64,000 nt of DNA, from NCBI RefSeq assembly GCF_988242995.1, contig NZ_OZ547043.1, one strand, 5' to 3'. Both the position numbers and the translations under genes were made by a program. How positions within the stretch are numbered: position 1 is the stretch's first letter; each line of letters opens with the position of its first letter. Positions 3,940 through 63,007 of the stretch are shown in pieces. Below the pieces are notes generated by a model. It did not search any database. It saw only the letters and a program-made list of their open reading frames with translations, and had not been told where the DNA came from.

Positions 3940-4824
3940 ATGGCTATGGAAACGCAGGACATTATCAAAAGGTCCGCAACTAACTCCATCACGCCGCCTT
4001 CTCAGGTGCGTGATTACAAAGCAGAAGTCGCGAAACTTATCGACGTTTCCACCTGTATCGGCTGTAAAGCCTGTCAGGTGGCGTGTTCAGAGTGGAACGA
4101 CATCCGTGATGAAGTGGGGCACTGCGTCGGGGTTTACGATAACCCCGCCGATCTGAGCGCCAAGTCCTGGACGGTGATGCGCTTTAGCGAAACCGAACAG
4201 AACGGCAAGCTGGAGTGGCTGATCCGTAAAGACGGCTGTATGCACTGTGAAGATCCGGGCTGCCTGAAGGCGTGCCCGTCTGCTGGTGCAATCATTCAGT
4301 ACGCTAACGGGATTGTCGATTTCCAGTCGGAAAACTGCATCGGCTGTGGTTACTGCATTGCCGGGTGTCCGTTTAATATTCCGCGCCTCAACAAAGAGGA
4401 TAACCGGGTATATAAATGCACGCTCTGCGTCGATCGCGTCAGCGTCGGCCAGGAACCGGCTTGTGTGAAAACCTGTCCGACCGGGGCTATCCACTTCGGC
4501 ACCAAGAAGGAGATGCTGGAGCTGGCGGAACAGCGCGTGGCGAAACTGAAAGCGCGTGGTTACGAACATGCTGGCGTCTACAACCCGGAAGGGGTCGGTG
4601 GTACGCACGTTATGTACGTGCTGCATCACGCCGATCAGCCGGAGCTGTATCACGGTCTGCCGAAAGATCCGAAGATCGATACCTCGGTAAGCCTGTGGAA
4701 AGGCGCGTTGAAACCGCTGGCAGCGGCTGGCTTTATTGCCACTTTTGCCGGGTTGATTTTCCATTACATCGGTATTGGCCCGAATAAGGAAGTGGACGAT
4801 GACGAGGAGGATCATCATGAGTAA
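3940..4824 (+). CDS. fdnH: Formate dehydrogenase-N beta subunit (4Fe-4S ferredoxin-type, C-terminal membrane anchor)
   Basis: 294-aa ORF with several CxxCxxCxxxCP ferredoxin motifs; lies 12 nt after fdnG. Confidence 0.93.
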
Positions 4825-5470
4825 GTCGAAAATGATTGTGCGCACCAAATTTATTGATCGCGCCTGTCACTGGACCGTGGTGATTTGCTTCTTTCTGGTG
4901 GCGCTGTCCGGGATTTCGTTCTTCTTCCCGACGCTGCAATGGCTGACGCAAACCTTCGGTACGCCGCAGATGGGGCGCATTTTGCACCCGTTCTTCGGCA
5001 TTGCGATTTTCGTCGCGCTGATGTTTATGTTTGTGCGTTTTGTGCATCACAACATCCCGGATAAGAAAGATATTCCGTGGCTGTTGAACATTGTCGAAGT
5101 ATTAAAAGGCAATGAGCACAAAGTGGCGGATGTTGGTAAGTACAACGCCGGGCAAAAGATGATGTTCTGGTCGATCATGAGCATGATTTTCGTGCTGCTG
5201 GTGACCGGGGTGATTATCTGGCGTCCGTACTTTGCGCAGTACTTCCCGATGCAGGTTGTTCGCTACAGCCTGCTGATTCACGCGGCTGCGGGTATCATCC
5301 TGATCCACGCCATCCTGATCCATATGTATATGGCATTCTGGGTGAAAGGATCGATTAAAGGGATGATCGAAGGGAAGGTGAGCCGTCGCTGGGCGAAGAA
5401 ACACCATCCACGCTGGTATCGTGAAATCGAGAAGGCAGAAGCGAAAAAAGAGAGTGAAGAAGGGATATAA
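4817..5470 (+). CDS. fdnI: Formate dehydrogenase-N gamma subunit (cytochrome b556)
   Basis: Internal ATG of track ORF 4775-5470 ([12 protein letters not shown]...) gives 217 aa; start overlaps the fdnH stop by 8 nt; polytopic membrane protein with conserved His residues. Confidence 0.9.
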
Positions 5471-50819: not shown

Positions 50820-51392
50820 TTATTCTCCCTCTGGATTATTCACGACGGAATTGAGCAGTTCGACAAGCCTTGAAGCGTGTTCCCGGGCAAGCGTTTTTTG
50901 CTGCGCGATTTTGTCGGCATCCCGGTCGGCATAGCTGATACCGCAGGTATAAACCGGCGCCAGCAGCTCAAGATTGCACAGCCTTGCCGTGGTTTCGAAC
51001 GGAATAAGATACTCTTCAATGGTATTGCCAAAGAAACTGTCGACGGTATAGAGCTCCTCTGGCGCTCCCGTTGTAAAGGAGAGGATCAGCTTTTTACCGC
51101 CCAGTTTCGCCGTTGAGCCATGCGCGAAGCCGTGAACAAAGACCTCGTCCAGCCATTTTTTCATTAATCCTGGCAGCCCATACCAGGAAAAAGGGAACTG
51201 CCAGACAATCACATCGGCCCTGAGCAGGCTTTTCTGCTCCGCCGCGATGTTGAATTTGCCATCCGGATAGAGCCTGTCCAGACGACGAATCTCAACATCG
51301 GGAAGGGCGGTCTCCACTTCATCAAGAATAGTGGCATTGGCGACGGAATGGGTAAGCTCAGGATGACCTGAAATAACAAGGATATTTTTCAT
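50820..51392 (-). CDS. Flavodoxin-like NAD(P)H:quinone oxidoreductase family protein
   Basis: 190 aa; MKNILVISGHPE... N-terminus and WQFPFSWYGLPGLMKKWLDEV typical of NAD(P)H dehydrogenase (quinone) family; 3-nt gap to the downstream AKR gene. Confidence 0.75.
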   Translation of the reverse strand: MKNILVISGHPELTHSVANATILDEVETALPDVEIRRLDRLYPDGKFNIAAEQKSLLRADVIVWQFPFSWYGLPGLMKKWLDEVFVHGFAHGSTAKLGGKKLILSFTTGAPEELYTVDSFFGNTIEEYLIPFETTARLCNLELLAPVYTCGISYADRDADKIAQQKTLAREHASRLVELLNSVVNNPEGE

Positions 51393-51542
51393 TTCAATCA
51401 GTTAAACATCTTTGGTGAATATTAAATCCAGTATAGAGTGACAACATTATTTTTTTAGAGCAGTAAAGGCTCATTCACTTTTAGGCAAAAACTAATAATT
51501 GTCGGCTGATCACAATGTGCTCAGTCATCATGAAACGGTGAA

Positions 51543-52220
51543 CTAAACCGTGATGCCCAGTAAACGTTCTGCATTGCGAAACGCGATGGCCTCTTTTTCA
51601 GCCTTGTTGACGGGCAGACTGTCTATAAAGGTTTTTACACCGTCCAGGGGTCTGATAGGGATAACCGACGGAGAACAGGATCCTTTCAGCACCCATTAAC
51701 GCGTAGATAAACTGGAAGTGCGGCAGTGTTAGCATATGACGGGGTAACGTAAACGTGTTCCTGGAAGGTTCTCGTTAGCGTGCGTGACAGACCCGTTGCA
51801 GCCAGTGCTAGGCTGTCATCAAGACGCTGGAGCCAGAAGGGTAACATCTCCCCCCAGTGGCCACTGATTACCTGCAGGTTGGGATATTTATCAAATGCGC
51901 CCGATAACATCAGCCGCAACAAATGGATCCCCGCTTCGTGATGCCAGCCCCAGGCAAACATAGAAAGCCTGGCGTTGACCTCTGCGCTGAAGCCCGTGAA
52001 GTAGGCCTGCTGTACGCTTTTAAGCGGTAACCCGGGATGAAGATAGAGTGGCACATTCAGTTTATTAAAGCGGGAAAGCAGGGAGTCGGTCAGGATTATG
52101 ACCATCAGCGACGGTTTTCCCCCTGTCGCCAAGGAAAGGTGCCTGCTCAAGCGCAACAGGCATACACGCGCGCCCTAACTCGCTGTCGAGATAATTTTCT
52201 TCGAGGCAAATGATTTTCAT
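51543..52220 (-). pseudogene. Frameshifted amidohydrolase-2 (TIM-barrel metal-dependent hydrolase) gene
   Basis: Coding potential is split over three frames: MKIICLEENYLDSELG... (from ATG at 52220), a 156-aa middle ORF (51686-52156) containing ISGHWGEMLPFW, and a C-terminal piece ...AEKEAIAFRNAERLLGITV* ending at 51543. Confidence 0.55.
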
Positions 52221-53343: not shown

Positions 53344-54033
53344 TTAAGCTGTCCGGCGGAGTGCATTTAACAGCGCCACACCAACCCCATGTGCTGAAGC
53401 GGGATTCTGCCCCGTGATAAGGCGATCGTCGGTAACCACGTTTTCAGACCAGTTTGGAGCTTCATGATAAAGCGCACCATGCTCGCGAAGTGCGGTTTCA
53501 AGCAGGAAGGGAACCACATCTGTTGTGTGAACTTCTTCCTCTTCCTTGTTGGTAAAGGCCGCCACATTTTTCCCTTTTATCAGGTATTCGCCGCTACTGA
53601 GTTTTGCGTCAACCAATGCCGCAGGCCCGTGGCAGACGGCTGAGACAATCCCATCACTTTCATACACTTCGCGGATAATACGCTGGGCATCCTGATTATC
53701 ACGGAAATCCCACATGGTCCCATGACCACCTGCAAAGAAAACTGCGCTGTAATCGGCACCTTTCAGCTCGGATAACGCAGGTGTTGTTGCCAGGCGCTGC
53801 TGAAAATCGGTTTCGTTCCAGTACCAGGCGTTAACAGGGTCGCTGAGGTCAAATCCATCCACCGGTGGCTGCCCCCCGCGAATACTGGCTATTGTTGTTT
53901 TTATTCCGGCATCTTCCAGTACTTTCAGCGGATGAGTCAGCTCGGCCAGGAAAAAACCGGTTGGTACACCGGATGCGCCTTTAATCGGATGGCTGGAAAC
54001 GACACATAGCACTGGTTTATATGCAGGTTTCAT
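53344..54033 (-). CDS. DJ-1/PfpI (class I glutamine amidotransferase-like) family protein
   Basis: Roughly 229 aa; nucleophile-elbow-like AVCHGP; start uncertain (track ORF extends to 54045). Confidence 0.75.
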   Translation of the reverse strand: MKPAYKPVLCVVSSHPIKGASGVPTGFFLAELTHPLKVLEDAGIKTTIASIRGGQPPVDGFDLSDPVNAWYWNETDFQQRLATTPALSELKGADYSAVFFAGGHGTMWDFRDNQDAQRIIREVYESDGIVSAVCHGPAALVDAKLSSGEYLIKGKNVAAFTNKEEEEVHTTDVVPFLLETALREHGALYHEAPNWSENVVTDDRLITGQNPASAHGVGVALLNALRRTA

Positions 54034-54041
54034 ATCGGTCC

Positions 54042-54353
54042 TCACTCTTTATTTTTAAATTCATCGGCGAAGAGATTTTCCCAGTTAATAAAGGAGCCAA
54101 GCGGTATACACTCGAAGCTTAGTAAGCCTGCTTTTGCCAACGGGAATTCGGCCATAACGTTCATCGCTTCATCGACAGAGTCACATTCAAGAAAAATAGC
54201 GACGCCAGGTCTGTCCTGACGGAAGTAGATGTCGCGGATGAAGCCTGATTTATACAATCCCCAGGCGTGCAGCGCTTCAGCGTTGAGGTGCGGAGCATAT
54301 TTCTCCAGCGATGCTCCAGGGGCAGGGATATCCAGACATAAAATTCGCATCAT
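54042..54353 (-). CDS. Small alpha+beta-barrel protein, possibly muconolactone-isomerase-like
   Basis: 103-aa ORF first in the operon; weak pattern similarity to muconolactone isomerase and other dimeric alpha/beta-barrel proteins; assignment tentative. Confidence 0.45.
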   Translation of the reverse strand: MMRILCLDIPAPGASLEKYAPHLNAEALHAWGLYKSGFIRDIYFRQDRPGVAIFLECDSVDEAMNVMAEFPLAKAGLLSFECIPLGSFINWENLFADEFKNKE

Positions 54354-54489
54354 AGTCTCCTGAACTCAGGTCGTTGTAGAAAGAGACTAAAGTATAAGAG
54401 GCGTATTTCAGGAAGATTAGAGGGTCATTGACTTAAGCATTTTTAGACTGTACTTAATAATCAGGCGAGAATTGCTTTAGGAAAACATT

Positions 54490-55389
54490 ATGAATAACGC
54501 TCTTTATAACCAGATTCGCATCTTCCAGAGCATTGCGCGGGAGGGCAATATTTCGGCAGCCGCAAGGAAACTGGAAATTACGCCTCCCTCCGTCAGCAAT
54601 GCACTAAAGCTGCTGGAAGAGTATATCGGCCATCCGCTTTTTGTGCGTACGACCCGCCGTATAGAGCTGACGGAAACCGGTCAATTATTGCTGGAACAGA
54701 CCGCTGCGGCGGTGGAGTCGCTGGAAAACTCACTTGAAAGCATTCGCGACCAGCATCAGGAGCCCTCTGGGATGGTGCGAATTACGCTCTCGCGTTTTGC
54801 CTACCTGTTAATTCTTAAGCCTGCGATGGCAGAATTCTGTCAGCAATATCCGGGTATACAGTTAGAAATTTCGGTCTACGACGGTACCGTGAATATCATC
54901 AAAGAGCGTTTTGATCTGGGGATCCGTTTTGGCGATATTCTTGAGGGAGGGGTGGTGGCCCGACCGTTAATGAAACCGTTTCGTGAAGGATTATATGCAT
55001 CCTCAGCGTATCTCTCCCGACATGGAACGCCTGAAGTGCCGGCAGATCTCTGTCATCACCAGCTGATTGGTTACCGTTTTATCACCAACAACCGCATCCT
55101 TCCGCTGCTCCTGAACGATCGCGGTGAGCAGTTGACCGTTGAGATGCCGGGGCAGTTAATCAGCAACGATATTGACGTTATGGCAGACGGGATCCGTAAC
55201 GGGCTGGGAATTGGGCGCTTGTTTGAGCCTGTCTGGCAGTTACAGCCGGACAGGGAGCGCTTTATTCCGGTGATGGAGAGCTACTGGAAAACCTACCCGC
55301 CAGTGTATCTCTATTACCCCAAAAACGCGGGTAAAACGAAAAGAGTGAAGGCCCTGATTGATTTTCTGATATCCACTACGGGGCGATAA
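54490..55389 (+). CDS. LysR-family transcriptional regulator
   Basis: 299 aa; N-terminal HTH (ISAAARKLEITPPSVSNALKLLEE) and LysR substrate-binding domain; divergent from the redox operon. Confidence 0.85.
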   Translation: MNNALYNQIRIFQSIAREGNISAAARKLEITPPSVSNALKLLEEYIGHPLFVRTTRRIELTETGQLLLEQTAAAVESLENSLESIRDQHQEPSGMVRITLSRFAYLLILKPAMAEFCQQYPGIQLEISVYDGTVNIIKERFDLGIRFGDILEGGVVARPLMKPFREGLYASSAYLSRHGTPEVPADLCHHQLIGYRFITNNRILPLLLNDRGEQLTVEMPGQLISNDIDVMADGIRNGLGIGRLFEPVWQLQPDRERFIPVMESYWKTYPPVYLYYPKNAGKTKRVKALIDFLISTTGR

Positions 55390-55787
55390 AGACGATAACG
55401 CCTCGTTCAGTATGGAGATGCATCGAATGGCATTGTGAGTTTTTTTTCACAGATGGGCGTAATCGTCAGTGGATTTTACATACGAGGATAGCGCCCACAT
55501 ACTGACATCATTAATTAACGTTGGGTGAGGTTTACCGGGGGGGAGGGGAACGCGAACCAGGAGATGGAGGTGGCCAATCTGGTACGAACCGCCGCGTAGC
55601 TTGCACGGCAAGAGCTGCTGACTGATTCATCAGTTAAGCTACTGAAAGAGCGGAACACATGAACTTAAGAACAAACCACCACATTTAACATAATATACAT
55701 TATGCGCACCAGCATAAACCAAGGAAGAATCCAGTCGTTGGCGGCCATAATTGTCCTGCTCATTAACAACGACCAAAACCCCATATC

Positions 55788-57110
55788 TTACTTAATACCG
55801 TATTCTCGGCTTAACCGGCCGTGCAACCTCAACACATTGGTTTCAACTGCCGTCACCACGTTCTCCGGAAAATCTGTCGGTAACGAAGTCTTCACGTTAT
55901 CCAGTGCTGCCGGAATCATTCTGGCAAAGTAATTCAGGATTTCATGCATCTGCACTTCCGGGAATCTCAGCACCTTTGCTGTCGCCAGAAAATGTCGCGG
56001 ATAAATTTTATCGATTGCCGTTTTTTTGCCTTTGGATGCGTTAAGCCCCATTGCCAGTTTGAGATCGCTGATGTGTATTCCTGCGCCACCCAATACCGGA
56101 AATGCTGAAATGATGTCGTAAAATGGCGTGAGTCGATAACTGCCGCCAGCCTGAATAAATACGGAGAAGTTTTTTGCATGGCCATCCGTTGCGCCAATCA
56201 ACCACTGGAACACCTGAAACTTCATAAAATCATAGCGATCTTTCAGCGCCTCGCTGGACCCCATCAAAAAAGCCATGATCCGCGCGATGCCTGGGCCTCC
56301 ATCTGATTCATATTTCACCGATGAAGGTAAACCGAATGTCTGACACATATCCTCCTGTGGCAAGCGAAGTAAAACCGTTCGCTCAGCATTCCAACGCCTG
56401 TCAAAACGTTCGACCGCTAACGCGCGCACATTTCCCGCTTTAATGATTTCTGCGTCCGGCACATTCAACCCAAGTTCTTTCGCCAGCAGCAGACAGTAAT
56501 ACTCATTATCAACGCTTTGGCTGAGATCGAGCGTCGCATTGGGCTGCCTGATTTCGCCAATCGGTAATTTAATGATGTGCGTCGTCGGCGTTATTCCTTT
56601 CGGAATGCACCAGTCATTGCCTATTCTGAGCAGCGCTGTCTTCTCCTGCGCGCCAGCAACCGAGATGCGAAAGTCATTTTCTTCTCTAATCATGCCCAGA
56701 GGGATATCTGCTTTATAAGCCGTTAATACTTCTTCAAGCCTGGCTTCAGTGAGCTGTTCCCATGCCATTATCGGGCGCGTTATGGTTTCATTTTCGGGTA
56801 ATAACGTTACGGCACCAACGCTATCTCGCCCTATTTCTGACAATAAATCAAACGGTTGTCTGGATTTAGCATGATAACGTTTAACGATCCGGTCACGTAC
56901 AATCGGGCTATCGGGTAGCAGGTTATCGAAGAAGTTAAATACAGCATCAGAGGTGATATTCCCCCTCTGCAATGGCAGCGAAAGTGATAACGGTCTGGCA
57001 TAACGGTTGGCTAACCACTCCGGTGCATACTTAAAGGTGTGCGCGCCATTGGCTAACTTCGTTAACTCGCCTACCCGCTGGTTGTTCATCCAAGTGACAA
57101 GTTTAGGCAT
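55788..57110 (-). CDS. hipA: Serine/threonine kinase toxin HipA
   Basis: Track ORF 55788-57167 with start MPKLVTWMNNQRVGELTKLANGAHTFKYAPEWLA (440 aa); start overlaps the hipB stop by 1 nt. Confidence 0.93.
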   Translation of the reverse strand: MPKLVTWMNNQRVGELTKLANGAHTFKYAPEWLANRYARPLSLSLPLQRGNITSDAVFNFFDNLLPDSPIVRDRIVKRYHAKSRQPFDLLSEIGRDSVGAVTLLPENETITRPIMAWEQLTEARLEEVLTAYKADIPLGMIREENDFRISVAGAQEKTALLRIGNDWCIPKGITPTTHIIKLPIGEIRQPNATLDLSQSVDNEYYCLLLAKELGLNVPDAEIIKAGNVRALAVERFDRRWNAERTVLLRLPQEDMCQTFGLPSSVKYESDGGPGIARIMAFLMGSSEALKDRYDFMKFQVFQWLIGATDGHAKNFSVFIQAGGSYRLTPFYDIISAFPVLGGAGIHISDLKLAMGLNASKGKKTAIDKIYPRHFLATAKVLRFPEVQMHEILNYFARMIPAALDNVKTSLPTDFPENVVTAVETNVLRLHGRLSREYGIK

Positions 57111-57376
57111 TACCACTCCAGATCTTGCTGTTCTGTTGATTCTGGCGAGGCATTTTTCGTGTCGCATAGCGTCATTGAGAGTTCAAGCGACTGTAAAATC
57201 TTAAAAAATGTCGTCAGCGTGGTATTGTCAGGGTTGTTTTCGAAATTGGAAATTGTCGCCTGCTTAATGCCGATTTTTTTCGCCAGCTCGCTCTGCGTCC
57301 AGCCATTTTGCTGACGAACCAGTTTCATTGCATTCGCTAATTGCGTTGGGCTATAGATCTTCTGAAAGCTCATCAT
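57110..57376 (-). CDS. hipB: HipB antitoxin (Xre-type HTH repressor)
   Basis: Track ORF 57110-57394 with start MMSFQKIYSPTQLANAMKLVRQQNGWTQSELAKKIG (88 aa). Confidence 0.93.
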   Translation of the reverse strand: MMSFQKIYSPTQLANAMKLVRQQNGWTQSELAKKIGIKQATISNFENNPDNTTLTTFFKILQSLELSMTLCDTKNASPESTEQQDLEW

Positions 57377-57397
57377 GTCATACGTCCACAGCAAATT

Positions 57398-57586: not shown

Positions 57587-60500
57587 TTACCAGCTATATT
57601 TCACACCCAGCATGCCCTGAGTATCGCTATAGCCTTTATCACCTAGTTGCACACCGACATTCCCCCACAGGCTAAGGTTGTTATTTACTTTCGCCTCAAC
57701 CCCGGTACGTACTTCACCGAGATTACGCGCACCATCACGGCTTACGGTTTGACCATTCATCTTCACGGCGTAGACTTTGCTGTTGTTGATCCAGTTCGCT
57801 TCAATGTAAGGCTGGAACTCACGCTGTTTACCATTGTCACGCTGGTGATGACTGTTCAGGTAGGTTTTCACCCCAAGTCGCGTTTGCACGTTTCCGTCGC
57901 CTTCCGTTTCAATGCGTGTTCCGTCTTTCCGGGTATGGTCAGAATCTTTCACACCCATCCAGGTGATTTGTACCTGTGGCTGGACGTACCAGGTATTCAG
58001 CGTCCCTTCGCTGCCGCTAAAAGTTCCCGCTTCAAAGGTATACCCACCCTCAACAGAGGCCGTCACACCGCGAGAATCATAGTCGTCAGCAGAACGGTTA
58101 TCGGAACTGACGCTGTTATCAAACCAGTTATACAGCGCCCAGCTGTCAACATAAGCGCCGGTCTTATTCGCATCGTTCTGATACCAGGTCGCGTACAGTC
58201 CTGCGCTGTAACCGCTGATGCGCCCATCCGATTTATAACCCACACGATTACTCTGAGTATTACTGTGCTGATTGGCGTAGCCTGCCATCACGCCAAGATG
58301 CCAGCGATCCTGCGCGTTGCTACTCCACTGCGCCAAATCGCCTCCTAGCTGCAATACATAGCGGTTAGCCTGAGTATTTAGCTGCCCGTCACCGGTCCTG
58401 AAACGTTCGTGCCCCCCGACATGACGCATCCACATACTGCTTGCCGAACCCTGAGAATGCAGTGAATCTGTATACTGCGGCTCACCCAGACGGTCGTGTA
58501 AGCGATGGCTAAACAGCGAGTTGGCTGCGGCAATGTTGCTGATATAGCTTCCGGCCTCCGGGCGATAAACTGATGGGCCTTCCGGATCCACAACAGGGGG
58601 ATTATTGATGGGATCGGGTGTATCCGCTGGCGTTACGCCGTCCCATTTACTGGTCAGATACCAGTTTTTCTCGTCATTCCCCTTCCCTTTAGCCAGCGTG
58701 TAGACGTAAGCCCCAGCTTCGACAGTTCCGGTGGTCAGCGCGAAGTTACCTGCAGAATTACCGCCAACCTCAATGAGTTCAATACCGTTGACCGTTTGTG
58801 CACCGACGCCGCCAATGTTATCAACCCGAACGCGAGTGTTCCCTTGGGTATCGCCTTTCACGTTCATTTTATCCGTGGGTGAATTATCGCCGCCCAGCGT
58901 CGCGTTGAACGTCATCAGGCCATTGTTTCCGGTATAGTTGCCGTTAACGGTCAGTACATTCCCCGGTTTTCCTCCTTCACTATTCATTTGAACCGTGCCG
59001 CCATTCTCCAGGTTACCGCCGACAGTGGTTTTAGCGACACGCAGTGTCCCCCCTGGCATAACGTTCACATCACCTGCAGTAGTGACATTTCCCGACATCA
59101 CACCGCTGTTATGGATATTAATGTGCTGACTTGCCATATTAATGGCAGAGTCGGAACCGAAAGCAATTTCACCACCCACGATATCCGTCGTACCCTGATA
59201 CGCCGCGGAATCTTTGTTAAGAGTCAGGATCCCGGTCCCCAGTTTTGTCACATCACCGCTACCGCTGATACTGTGCGTCATCGCCCAGCTACGCTCAGTG
59301 GAGATGGTGAGCAGGCCATTATTGATAACGGAAGCATCACCCAGGTTTTTCTGCTCGTTGACGCTGAGCGCGCTGCCTGTATCAATGTTGAATTGCCCCA
59401 CAAAGCGGCTATTATCGCCATCCAGCTCTACGTCTGTCCTGGCGGTTGCGCTCACGATACCCTTCCCGCTTATGCTATTACGCAGTTCGCCGGTCACATT
59501 TTTTAGCGTTAACAGACCGTCATTGGCAATATTTCCTCTACCTAACCCCTGCGTATTATCGAGGCTGACTTCCGCATTTGGGCTAATGCTGGTTAACGCA
59601 TTGTAGCGTGCATTAAGCCCCTCGATAGCCAGCGTTCCCCCTGTAACATTCAGGTTTCCGCCACCTGTCAGTTCGCCCTGACTGATCCCACCTTTATTCA
59701 CCGTCAGCGACCCCTCTTTAAACAAAACAGTCGAACCCATCAGCCCGGTGAATGTCTCTACCGTCTGGGCCGATCCATTAAGATCGACGATGGCCGCGTT
59801 GCTGATGTTCAGTTCCCGAGTATTGCCCAGCGCGCCATCCGCATCGGTACGTAATGTCCCCATCTGAACGTAGGTTGCCCCCTGATAGTCGTTCTGACCG
59901 TTGGAAAGCGAAACCTGTCGCACCGTATTGATTGCCAGATCCCCTTCACCACCGATTTTTGCCGACATATCGGCCGTTGCGCCATAGGCTCCGCCATGTT
60001 CGGCTAACGTCAGCTTTTGCCCACCATGGATGTTCAGCGCTTTCAGCCCATAGTTAACGTACAAACCATCACCTGGTGCGGTCGTGAGGCGGAATCCATA
60101 ATCACCCTCGGCGACCACTGTCCCGTTTTGTGCAATATGTAACGTTTTGTCCGCTTCCACCTCGTCGCCCTGTAAATCACGTAACGTTAATGAGCCACCC
60201 GACCCAATAACCGTTTGCGCCTTCACCAGTTGAACGCCGACATGACTATCATCGTGTTCCAGCAAATTGAGCGTCGTCAGAGGGTTATTCGCCATGGGAT
60301 CATTCCACGGTTTAGGCACGTCGATAAGCACGTCGCCCGTCCCGTTTACCTGATAGTTACGGCCTTTCCAGGTGTAGTCACCCGCGCCGACAACCAGCGT
60401 ATCGACGCTGATATATCCCTCCGCGAGCGTCGCAGCAGGAATATCCGTATCGAAAATGAGCGTACCGCCATTCATGGCCAGTCCACCAATGGATTGCTCT

Positions 60501-63007
60501 CCCACGTTTACCGATGTGGTATTTTCACTGTCAGACTGCAACATCGCGTGAGTAAGCGCAGCGGTGTTGTCGCGTTCCAGCGTGAAGGTACTATCTTTCA
60601 GTTGGGCAACACCGGCGAATTCAGTCCCTGTTGCATGGGTAAAGCCAAACATCTTGTCGGAGGATGACAGCTGCACTCGCATCAAGCCATCGCCTTTGAG
60701 CGCATTGGTCAGCGTGTAATCTCCTGCACTGTTCGTTGATGCGAGAATGTCGAGCGTACCGGGGTTTGCAATGGTTACTTCACTCGAACCCATGCCCGTT
60801 ACCCCATCTGCCGTATGAGACGCAATGGTCAGGAGGCCGTCATTGACCAGCGTTTTACCGCTATAAGTATTCCCTGCATTGAACACCGTATGGCCTGCAT
60901 CATGGATCACTTTTCCGTCTTTATCGTCACCTGTAATCAGCATATCGACCTGGTAGCCGGCATCACTGTTATTAGTATGATTAAAGACAAAAACACCTTC
61001 GCCAGAGCCAAACTCTATTTTCGTCGCGTTGGTGATAAATCCGGCATCTGCCGCCGCCTCACCGTGAGCTGCACCAATGTTTAGCGTTCCTACAGCAGGT
61101 TCAAAAACACCTAAGTAAACTTCTCCACCTTCGACATTCAGCGTACCGTTATTCGTCAGTGTTAACGTACCTGTGCCAGTCGTCCCTACATTCATATTGA
61201 ATGTTTCAAGAAGAGAGTTCTGCCCATCCACCCGCACGTCGCCCTTACTTTTGTCATTGAGAGCTATCTGTGTATCACGCGCTTTAACTATACCTCCGGT
61301 GGTAATATTCAGTTCACCCGCGCCTAATACACCGACCTGTAGCAATTGGGCGTTAGTAGATGACGTTTTTAAATTCCAGAGACTATCCGTTGAAATATTA
61401 ACTATCCCCTTACCGGAGGCATTTCCTCCGATAAATCCATAGCCCGTTGAATTAAGAGTGGCACCATTACTGACATTTACGATGCCGCTACCAAAATTAC
61501 CGACATTAATACCTACAGTATCGAACAATGATGTCGCATCCATCAGGTTCAGTGTGCCGATACCGCTTGCTTTATCGCCCAAAAAAGTAATATTTTGCGA
61601 TACAAACTTACCGCCATCGCTAATATTGAGGTTTCCGACACCCGCAACACCAATGGTGGTATAGACATTCTTATTGACCTCCCACATCCCCCCCGTGGTG
61701 ATGCTGACATTCCCGACGCCGGTTTCTCCATAACCGAGTGAGCTTCCTCCGTTGCTGACAACAAGCCCCTCATTACTGATATTCATTTCGCCGTGGCCGT
61801 CATAACCAAGATTAGTTCCGAGATTAGTGATAACGGAGTTCTTATCCTTAATAGTAATGTTGCCTGTGCCTGTTTCTTTCATCCCCGCAGTGATAATTCC
61901 CGAATCTACTTTTCCTTCACTCGAGACATTAAGTTCACCGTCGCCAGCATCACCGATATAGATATAGCGGAAAGCTTCGCCCGTTCCGAGGAAATTCCAA
62001 TGCCCTTTATCAGTCACGTTGACGACACCGTGGGAACCGTCCTGAACGCCCACCAATGAATATTCTTTGTTATTAATCAGTCCATTATTGGAAATATTGA
62101 CTTTGCCATTACCGAAATATCCATTATAGAGTCTGCGTACCGTGATGACAGAGTCTTGATCCTGCACATTCAGGGTTCCGATACCGGTGGCATTGCCACC
62201 GATAATCGTATTTTCAGCCGTAATCAGCCCACCCTCGCGAATAGTCGCTTCCCCAGTTCCTTGATTGCCAATTTGAAATTCAATTGAGGAATCATTATTT
62301 TTTATTAGCCACTCGCCACCCTTTTCAACGACAACCTTACCATTACTGTTCGCCTGATATCCTACAATGGCGACGATTGAACTCGTGACGTAACCCTTAT
62401 CCGTAATATTTAATGAGCCTGTACCGTAACTCCCTATTTCGAATAATTCGGTCATCAGAACCGAGTCCTCTCCCTCAACATTGACCGTCCCGACGCCTCC
62501 TGTCGAAGAACCTATCCTTAAATATCCTCCGTCAACGTGCCCCTTCTGTTTAATATTCAGCATCCCCGTTCCGGATTGGCCCACATTTAAAGGCCTTGCA
62601 TTATTTCCGCTATCATACAATCGCCAGGTGCCACCCAAAACATTAACGGTGCCCTTCGAGTTCTCATTACCACCAATGACGCTGGTAGTAATAGTGGTTA
62701 AGGAGGCATTACCGCCAGCCAAAATATTAAGCACTCCAGTGCCATACCACCCAACCAGGTAGGCATCATAAGCAATATCAGTATTAATATTGGTAATCTG
62801 ATCATTATCAACTTCCAGACTCGCACCAGACGCTGAACCGCTTAGTGCCAGCAAAACACCCAGCGACAATCTACTGAATTTCGTTGTCAGTCCAGAGGAT
62901 TTACGCAAATTAACCGTCGATGTTTTACCTACTCTGCGAGTTAATTCCGAGCAGACCTGAAATACCTGTAGGGTGCAATTCCATATCACGCGATAGATTC
63001 TATTCAT
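57587..63007 (-). CDS. yneO: AIDA-I-type autotransporter adhesin, intact, 1806 aa
   Basis: Extended autotransporter signal region (MNRIYRVIWNCTLQVFQVCSELTRR...), long passenger with reiterated G-x-G / NxG beta-helix-like modules, and a C-terminal beta-barrel ending ...GVKYSW; position between hipB and lsrK matches K-12 yneO. Confidence 0.85.
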   Translation of the reverse strand: MNRIYRVIWNCTLQVFQVCSELTRRVGKTSTVNLRKSSGLTTKFSRLSLGVLLALSGSASGASLEVDNDQITNINTDIAYDAYLVGWYGTGVLNILAGGNASLTTITTSVIGGNENSKGTVNVLGGTWRLYDSGNNARPLNVGQSGTGMLNIKQKGHVDGGYLRIGSSTGGVGTVNVEGEDSVLMTELFEIGSYGTGSLNITDKGYVTSSIVAIVGYQANSNGKVVVEKGGEWLIKNNDSSIEFQIGNQGTGEATIREGGLITAENTIIGGNATGIGTLNVQDQDSVITVRRLYNGYFGNGKVNISNNGLINNKEYSLVGVQDGSHGVVNVTDKGHWNFLGTGEAFRYIYIGDAGDGELNVSSEGKVDSGIITAGMKETGTGNITIKDKNSVITNLGTNLGYDGHGEMNISNEGLVVSNGGSSLGYGETGVGNVSITTGGMWEVNKNVYTTIGVAGVGNLNISDGGKFVSQNITFLGDKASGIGTLNLMDATSLFDTVGINVGNFGSGIVNVSNGATLNSTGYGFIGGNASGKGIVNISTDSLWNLKTSSTNAQLLQVGVLGAGELNITTGGIVKARDTQIALNDKSKGDVRVDGQNSLLETFNMNVGTTGTGTLTLTNNGTLNVEGGEVYLGVFEPAVGTLNIGAAHGEAAADAGFITNATKIEFGSGEGVFVFNHTNNSDAGYQVDMLITGDDKDGKVIHDAGHTVFNAGNTYSGKTLVNDGLLTIASHTADGVTGMGSSEVTIANPGTLDILASTNSAGDYTLTNALKGDGLMRVQLSSSDKMFGFTHATGTEFAGVAQLKDSTFTLERDNTAALTHAMLQSDSENTTSVNVGEQSIGGLAMNGGTLIFDTDIPAATLAEGYISVDTLVVGAGDYTWKGRNYQVNGTGDVLIDVPKPWNDPMANNPLTTLNLLEHDDSHVGVQLVKAQTVIGSGGSLTLRDLQGDEVEADKTLHIAQNGTVVAEGDYGFRLTTAPGDGLYVNYGLKALNIHGGQKLTLAEHGGAYGATADMSAKIGGEGDLAINTVRQVSLSNGQNDYQGATYVQMGTLRTDADGALGNTRELNISNAAIVDLNGSAQTVETFTGLMGSTVLFKEGSLTVNKGGISQGELTGGGNLNVTGGTLAIEGLNARYNALTSISPNAEVSLDNTQGLGRGNIANDGLLTLKNVTGELRNSISGKGIVSATARTDVELDGDNSRFVGQFNIDTGSALSVNEQKNLGDASVINNGLLTISTERSWAMTHSISGSGDVTKLGTGILTLNKDSAAYQGTTDIVGGEIAFGSDSAINMASQHINIHNSGVMSGNVTTAGDVNVMPGGTLRVAKTTVGGNLENGGTVQMNSEGGKPGNVLTVNGNYTGNNGLMTFNATLGGDNSPTDKMNVKGDTQGNTRVRVDNIGGVGAQTVNGIELIEVGGNSAGNFALTTGTVEAGAYVYTLAKGKGNDEKNWYLTSKWDGVTPADTPDPINNPPVVDPEGPSVYRPEAGSYISNIAAANSLFSHRLHDRLGEPQYTDSLHSQGSASSMWMRHVGGHERFRTGDGQLNTQANRYVLQLGGDLAQWSSNAQDRWHLGVMAGYANQHSNTQSNRVGYKSDGRISGYSAGLYATWYQNDANKTGAYVDSWALYNWFDNSVSSDNRSADDYDSRGVTASVEGGYTFEAGTFSGSEGTLNTWYVQPQVQITWMGVKDSDHTRKDGTRIETEGDGNVQTRLGVKTYLNSHHQRDNGKQREFQPYIEANWINNSKVYAVKMNGQTVSRDGARNLGEVRTGVEAKVNNNLSLWGNVGVQLGDKGYSDTQGMLGVKYSW

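Follow-up and report, generated by a model that had tools for sequence, protein, structure and literature searches.

LTTRs share a layout in which a site carrying a T-N11-A motif (the RBS) is accompanied by an activation-binding site (ABS) beside the -35 hexamer, under a footprint of 50 to 60 bp (PMC2724274, PMC8407307). The T-N11-A geometry accommodates one pair of LysR DNA-binding domains about one helical turn (~11 bp) apart (PMC2724274), and members of the family frequently repress their own genes from the RBS and shift between sub-sites of the ABS under the action of an effector (PMC2724274, PMC8407307, PMC11739112). CrgA of Neisseria meningitidis, an octamer, represses its own gene and activates the divergent NADPH quinone oxidoreductase gene, mdaB, via T-N11-A sites that lie over the -10 of crgA and abut the -35 of mdaB within a footprint of ~63 bp; the induction of mdaB by an electrophilic lactone, alpha-methylene-gamma-butyrolactone, is CrgA dependent (PMC2724274). 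CrgA-mdaB is the closest characterised system to the locus described here, whose regulator is a full-length homologue of CrgA and whose target is, in many species, likewise a divergent flavodoxin-fold NAD(P)H oxidoreductase. Electrophile induction in the meningococcal system also fits the detoxification gene content found here. The two differ in several respects: (i) the present regulator is a distant homologue at the subfamily level, not an orthologue, and the enzyme is KefF-like rather than MdaB; (ii) both T-N11-A sites of CrgA, 15 bp from each other, are clear, whereas here there is one clear box and a conserved TTAG 26 bp away; and (iii) the gene cluster, unlike crgA-mdaB, has grown in Escherichia coli to about nine genes with two copies of the operator module.

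The locus lies in a 64-kb stretch of DNA (here, the window) whose host is E. coli. Positions 53900 to 55500 were at least 99% identical in 483 complete E. coli genomes and were found in 486 of 5,426 (~9%), which marks the cluster as accessory. The control region separates two divergent genes (Table 1). A preliminary description had given this gap as 136 bp, and so it is, with the minus-strand open reading frame (ORF) beginning at 54353 and the LysR ORF at 54490; RefSeq starts the 103-amino-acid (aa) gene at the second ATG, which makes the gap 139 bp. That description's labels, a redox operon facing a LysR gene, are also fair by the RefSeq gene list and by the Pfam domains. In RefSeq, at an identical locus, the genes running outward from the gap encode, all on the same strand, a hypothetical protein of 102 or 103 aa, a protein of the DJ-1/PfpI type, the first of two aldo/keto reductases, an amidohydrolase (broken), the NAD(P)H-dependent oxidoreductase, the other aldo/keto reductase, a putative quinol monooxygenase, and a member of the carboxymuconolactone decarboxylase family, while the opposite strand encodes the LysR family regulator followed by hipA and hipB. 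The latter pair (toxin-antitoxin; 55788-57394) and a gene for an 1806-aa autotransporter of the ECSE_1600 family (57587-63007) directly follow the LysR gene; hipA encodes 440 aa from the RefSeq start versus 459 aa for the longest ORF in the window. The amidohydrolase gene, between the aldo-keto reductase and oxidoreductase genes, looks broken in E. coli (51541-52322; ORF 51686-52156 and neighbours): RefSeq splits it into coding sequences of 564 bp and 156 bp, and the gap between its neighbours is ~930 bp in E. coli versus ~1270 bp in the Pantoea, Rouxiella, and Rahnella loci.

TABLE 1 Features of the control region, its second copy, and the adjoining genes (coordinates in the window)
Feature	Position	Strand	Basis or conservation
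Intergenic region	54354-54489		136 bp, 37% G+C, between divergent 103-aa gene and LysR-family gene
LysR-family regulator gene, 299 aa, uncharacterised, CrgA-like subgroup	54490-55389	+	Pfam, NCBIfam, PDB comparison
First operon gene, 103 aa, no family match	54042-54353	-	Predicted YCII/muconolactone-isomerase-like alpha+beta barrel fold
KefF-like NAD(P)H-dependent oxidoreductase gene (Flavodoxin_2)	50820-51392	-	Pfam, NCBIfam
Proposed RBS, T-N11-A box TTAGACTGTACTTAA, consensus TTAG-N7-YTAA	54443-54457		Conserved position in orthologous loci
TAATAAT box extension	54455-54461		90-100% per column; also in module B copies without lysR downstream
C-T-y-A-A block	54432-54436		C 87%, T 95%, T/C, A 95%, A 79%; overlaps left arm of the earlier dyad
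TTAG, 26 bp from RBS TTAG	54417-54420		92-100% conserved in 39 modules, outside search pattern; invariant in alignment A1
Inferred -10 hexamer TATACT (5/6), operon promoter	54391-54396	-	AGTATA invariant or nearly so in A1, whichever gene follows
Earlier dyad TTAAG-N15-CTTAA	54433-54457		Present, chance level, not conserved as a dyad
Second operator copy (module B), perfect dyad TTAGGCAAAAACTAA then TAAT(AAT)	51481-51495		Only other pattern site in the 64-kb window
Promoter-proximal TTAG of module B, 26 bp from the RBS there	51455-51458		Overlaps GAGC-N7-GCTC dyad 51458-51472
Module B inferred -10 hexamer TATACT (oxidoreductase gene)	51430-51435	-	AGTATA conserved

The regulator has an N-terminal wHTH and a C-terminal substrate-binding domain (Pfam HTH_1, 7e-22; LysR_substrate, 2e-26). 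No NCBIfam equivalog describes it: the best-scoring named models were those of E. coli K-12 YafC, GcvA, TtdR, and AaeR, and it is none of these, every score being far under the curated cut-off (YafC, the best, gave 162.8 bits versus 470). Its closest solved relatives were PDB 3mz1 and 3hhg, the latter being N. meningitidis CrgA, which aligned over residues 8 to 298 (phmmer E = 5e-28). The 103-aa protein encoded across the gap had no significant match in Pfam, NCBIfam, or a PDB sequence search and is 83 to 98% conserved across 11 genera; its AlphaFold model, of moderate confidence (pLDDT 71), is a ferredoxin-like alpha+beta barrel closest to the YCII protein HI0828, the hydroxyhydroquinone dehydrochlorinase TftG, and a chloromuconolactone isomerase (TM ~0.57).

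A scan of the LysR protein against one genome per species yielded 33 loci. Orthologues 75 to 94% identical were encoded in about 25 species of Enterobacterales, including members of Klebsiella, Raoultella, Serratia, Yersinia, Pantoea, Rahnella, Pectobacterium, and Erwinia, and remoter ones (57 to 66%) in Lautropia, Cardiobacterium, and Acinetobacter. The divergent arrangement was kept in about 30 species, and the gene facing the regulator was always one of the same five detoxification genes, its identity varying between species: the 103-aa gene, the KefF-like oxidoreductase gene, either of the two aldo-keto reductase genes, or the DJ-1 gene. Because the first target gene varies in this way, phylogenetic footprinting of the intergenic region is informative. 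The KefF-like oxidoreductase gene was directly divergent from the regulator in at least 10 loci, and across species no other gene was as constant in its linkage to the regulator and to the conserved upstream elements. One of the loci, a 1136-bp contig in a "Collinsella sp." metagenome-assembled genome (L018), encodes LysR and 103-aa products 100% identical to those of E. coli over the aligned parts and bears the same box as E. coli; almost certainly it reflects contamination of the Collinsella bin by E. coli.

Footprinting drew on the orthologous loci of about 25 Enterobacterales species, two of Vibrio, and one of Acinetobacter, through alignments of the 150 nt upstream of lysR, of 40 modules anchored on a box pattern, and of 30 modules with MAFFT (alignment A1). 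It places the likely operator of the regulator at a 15-bp dyad, TTAG-N7-YTAA (54443-54457), together with the TAATAAT that overlaps its end, which re-maps the site from the dyad that the preliminary description had put forward. The box has the 4-N7-4 form with T-N11-A, a form that the earlier TTAAG-N15-CTTAA does not have. In 24 orthologous Enterobacterales loci the pattern stood 47 ± 1 nt upstream of the lysR ATG, and in E. coli TTAGACTGTACTTAA also stands 90 to 104 nt upstream of the start of the 103-aa gene. About half of the modules read TTAG/CTAA; E. coli and its nearest relatives read TTAG/TTAA, and the E. coli box is therefore imperfect, with 3 of 4 outer pairs. In ~270 kb of orthologous loci there were only 6 pattern matches outside modules. 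In the 64-kb window the distinct sites were only two, 54443-54457 and 51481-51495, each 89 to 90 nt upstream of an operon gene start; counting both strands, the 3 matches in the window are no enrichment over the 3.5 expected at random, so the case for an operator is made by position and conservation. Box columns 0 to 3 and 11 to 14 are 100% conserved by construction, the pattern having served as the anchor, and many of the compared loci are related by descent and hence not independent; support independent of the anchor comes from the fixed position, from flanking elements outside the search pattern, and from the distant lineages considered below. Conservation is concentrated in blocks: column identity was 41 to 59% in the N7 spacer and in the stretch after TAATAAT, and 36 to 59% in the columns between and beyond the conserved blocks. 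Searches of the literature for the motif, for the accession of the protein, and for this combination of genes found nothing, nor was a TTAG/CTAA half-site found described.

The dyad of the preliminary description does exist, with TTAAG at 54433-54437 and CTTAA at 54453-54457 exactly 15 bases apart. An LTTR footprint would be expected to cover the stretch in which it lies, each arm shares columns with conserved positions (left, T54433, A54435, and A54436; right, T54455 to A54457), and it is intact in the 8 closest relatives, all of which speaks for its being itself the operator, bound by one dimer or by two subunits on its arms. We nevertheless consider that reading very improbable and reject the dyad as an operator by its count, its conservation, and its geometry. 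In this AT-rich region, perfect 5-bp dyads with gaps of 0 to 25 numbered 4, against 4.05 ± 2.5 expected from 5,000 dinucleotide-preserving shuffles of the 136 bp; 96% of shuffles had at least one such dyad and 14% had one with a gap of exactly 15. All five pairs were intact in only 8 of 40 homologous modules, and the 26 more diverged modules kept a mean of 2.6 of 5, no better than other registers, which reached 2.8. The left arm falls in a less conserved stretch between the box and the promoter-proximal TTAG, where the three columns named above are the only conserved ones; the inner pair was poorly kept (G54437 in 36% of modules, C54453 in 23%), and compensatory change between the arms was not seen, position 54434 flipping between T and C against a constant A at its partner, 54456. 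From centre to centre the arms are separated by 20 bp, as against ~11 bp for T-N11-A. The inverted-repeat reading is also not unique, since CTTAAG is itself palindromic and ACTTAA recurs as a direct repeat 21 bp apart. What stands of the earlier proposal is the right arm, which is the right half-site of the conserved box: its true and better-conserved partner is TTAG 54443-54446, and TTAAG 54433-54437 was the wrong one. The broader claim of a LysR divergent region bearing an operator is well supported, while the specific dyad is not a conserved unit.

The same arms could instead form an RNA hairpin in the lysR leader, such as a translational or stability element, and would be in the 5' untranslated region of lysR if transcription starts upstream of 54433. 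This reading we reject and give next to no weight: the predicted fold of 54425-54489 leaves the arms unpaired and has no unusual stability (-10.9 kcal/mol, z = -1.72, equalled or bettered by 13 of 200 shuffles), no Rfam match was found at E ≤ 1, a stem of 5 A/U-rich pairs closing a 15-nt loop is unstable, and pairing between the arms is not conserved.

The elements flanking the 15-bp box are conserved at fixed spacing. With A54439, which is also conserved, TAATAAT makes an imperfect palindrome of ~23 bp, and it may double as the -10 of lysR (AATAAT, 5/6). Candidate lysR promoters were nonetheless unsatisfactory: AATAAT at 54456-54461 has a -35 matching at just 3/6, and TTGACT at 54428-54433 has no acceptable -10 at 16 to 19 bp. 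On the operon side, we propose that TTAG 54417-54420, which would sit at about -33 to -36 over a poor -35 (TAATCT, 2/6), is the promoter-proximal part of the ABS, and that the C-T-y-A-A block is probably its distal part. At this TTAG the A at +12 that a second T-N11-A site would have is not kept (G 69%, A 26%); one box is clear. Two further dyads were set aside: GAGC-N7-GCTC, considered as an ABS dyad, is perfect in module B but degenerate in module A, the intergenic copy, and over the modules as a whole keeps a mean of only 2.1 to 2.4 of its 4 pairs; and CTyA-N7-TTAG (54432-54446, 2.9 of 4 pairs) shares the TTAG of the box with opposite half-site polarity and is regarded as a by-product.

Provided that TATACT (54396-54391), a conserved hexamer, is the -10 of the operon promoter, transcription would start near 54384 and the box centre (54450) would lie at about -66. 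A sigma-70 consensus scan of 54200-54650 found no promoter at its threshold, so it is conservation from which the -10 and the start are assigned; a poor -35 and no consensus promoter are what would be expected of an activator-dependent promoter. With the box at about -66 and TTAG at -33 to -36, the arrangement would match the published LTTR layout. Classical LTTR promoters (e.g., BenM/CatR/CbnR; RBS at about -65, ABS at about -35; PMC8407307, PMC11739112, PMC2724274) share with it the 15-bp 4-N7-4 dyad with T-N11-A, the divergent genes, a weak target -35 under the second conserved element, and a conserved span of ~45 to 50 bp; a difference is that positions relative to the transcription start are here inferred rather than mapped.

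The complete module recurs within the cluster. At 51423-51506 (module B), the same series is found in the ~150 bp that part the KefF-like oxidoreductase gene from what is left of the amidohydrolase gene: a -10-like TATACT, TTAG, the dyad TTAGGCAAAAACTAA, here 89 to 103 nt upstream of the oxidoreductase start (51392), and TAATAAT. A full module ~90 bp upstream of the oxidoreductase gene was present in 14 loci (E. coli and 13 others), and it was kept whether lysR was adjacent or 1 to 3.5 kb away. By this account the cluster probably comprises two regulator-dependent transcription units, each with its own promoter. Tandem boxes 73 to 133 bp apart occur in Erwinia mallotivora (L015, 3881-3968), Yersinia artesiana (L032, 3821-3968), and Enterobacillus (L019, 3827-3967), the full module standing by the downstream gene and the lysR-proximal box having neither the -10 nor the TTAG; the pairs look like remnants left where genes were gained or lost in the interval from lysR to the oxidoreductase gene.

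Loci in distant lineages bear on whether the box belongs to this regulator. Two Vibrio orthologues (50% identity) retain it as TTAGTCTTGAGCTAATAAT and TTAGGTAGAAACTAACAA (TTAG-N7-CTAA), one of these loci having the full module, with the 26-bp spacing from TTAG to TTAG, before an oxidoreductase homologue. The Acinetobacter marinus regulator is 57% identical, and the two boxes at homologous positions in its locus, the first near lysR and the second 94 nt before the oxidoreductase gene, are both TTTC-N7-GAAA (L028, 669-683 and 3932-3946; register checked in A1). The change is symmetric, both half-sites being altered with all spacings retained, and the recognition-helix region of the A. marinus regulator reads GAPAVS versus TPPSVS in the enteric proteins. 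In "Candidatus Symbiopectobacterium" (L030, ~3950-4878), the match to lysR falls into two segments with an overlap at residue 194, suggestive of a frameshift, and the right half of the box is gone (TTAGCAAAAGCCTAT); in this symbiont the regulator and its operator seem to be decaying in parallel. The retention in Vibrio, the symmetric change in Acinetobacter, and the decay in the symbiont link box and regulator. Loci of Lautropia and Cardiobacterium gave ambiguous information or none: upstream of lysR, Lautropia has TTTC-N7-GAAA, yet its recognition helix is that of some enterobacterial orthologues with a TTAG box, e.g., in Serratia.

Not every element follows the box, and a different explanation can be put forward, in which the module is made up of promoter elements or serves as a site for another factor not encoded beside it, such as a global regulator, with the LysR protein binding elsewhere or nowhere. 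The promoter-proximal TTAG and a T-run are constant in Acinetobacter though the 15-bp box changes, which for the TTAG is unexpected if both are read alike, and TAATAAT and AGTATA resemble -10 hexamers. Such binding by another factor is unlikely because of the strict linkage to lysR, the module occurring in every locus only beside or within a few kilobases of a lysR orthologue, and because of the co-variation in Acinetobacter, where the symmetric change goes with a different recognition helix. The T-N11-A dyad form of the box, typical of LTTRs, and its decay where lysR looks disrupted point the same way. So does a locus of Bibersteinia trehalosi (L033, 3377-3900), in which the LysR homologue is fragmentary and the oxidoreductase homologue adjoins a small ORF whose translation looks like an HxlR-type winged-helix regulator: the dyad upstream there is a different one, CTTAC-N5-GTAAG.

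We therefore read the intergenic region, with a probability of roughly 0.8, as the control region of a CrgA-like LTTR whose primary site would be the box TTAGACTGTACTTAA, with an ABS at about 54417-54436 and a second promoter at module B. From the conservation, geometry, and duplication of these elements and their co-occurrence with the regulator gene, all established from the sequence, we infer protein binding, transcription starts, activation, autorepression, and the nature of the inducer as follows. The regulator would be anchored at a high-affinity RBS formed by the box and TAATAAT (54443-54461) and would make weaker contact with the ABS, where TTAG overlies the poor -35 of the operon promoter. 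An oligomer spanning both sites could, by analogy with described LTTRs, rearrange on the ABS upon receiving its signal, of an electrophile, quinone, or carbonyl type, and recruit RNA polymerase to the operon promoter. As the RBS and TAATAAT lie 29 to 47 nt upstream of the lysR start codon, their occupancy would probably also repress lysR. The same regulator very probably drives the module at 51430-51499, before the KefF-like oxidoreductase and aldo-keto reductase genes. As for the class of signal, reactive quinones, hydroquinones, or carbonyls are suggested by the gene content: the cluster encodes a KefF-like quinone reductase, two aldo-keto reductases, a DJ-1/glyoxalase-III-like protein, a quinol monooxygenase, an AhpD-like decarboxylase, and the 103-aa protein whose model resembles YCII and TftG.

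This is a routine LysR-type divergent control region that had been uncharacterised, and knowledge of how LysR regulators work is unchanged by it. A more far-reaching reading can be offered only tentatively, as we think it less probable than its alternative: that the regulator is an undescribed electrophile or quinone sensor, the functional counterpart of CrgA in Enterobacterales, Vibrio, and Acinetobacter; that the whole cassette of -10, promoter-proximal TTAG, and 15-bp box has been copied before different detoxification genes during growth of the cluster; and that operator and recognition helix switched together in Acinetobacter, symmetrically from TTAG/CTAA to TTTC/GAAA and from TPPSVS to GAPAVS. 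Were it true, the family would provide a natural test case for the co-evolution of LTTRs and their operators and possibly a biosensor part. Short of that, the analysis corrects the site to target in binding or mutagenesis work, assigns a concrete candidate operator (TTAG-N7-YTAA with TAATAAT) and two candidate target promoters to an uncharacterised LysR regulator that is widespread in Enterobacterales, and links that regulator to a KefF-like oxidoreductase, aldo-keto reductase, and DJ-1 detoxification cluster that resembles the quinone response of CrgA-mdaB.
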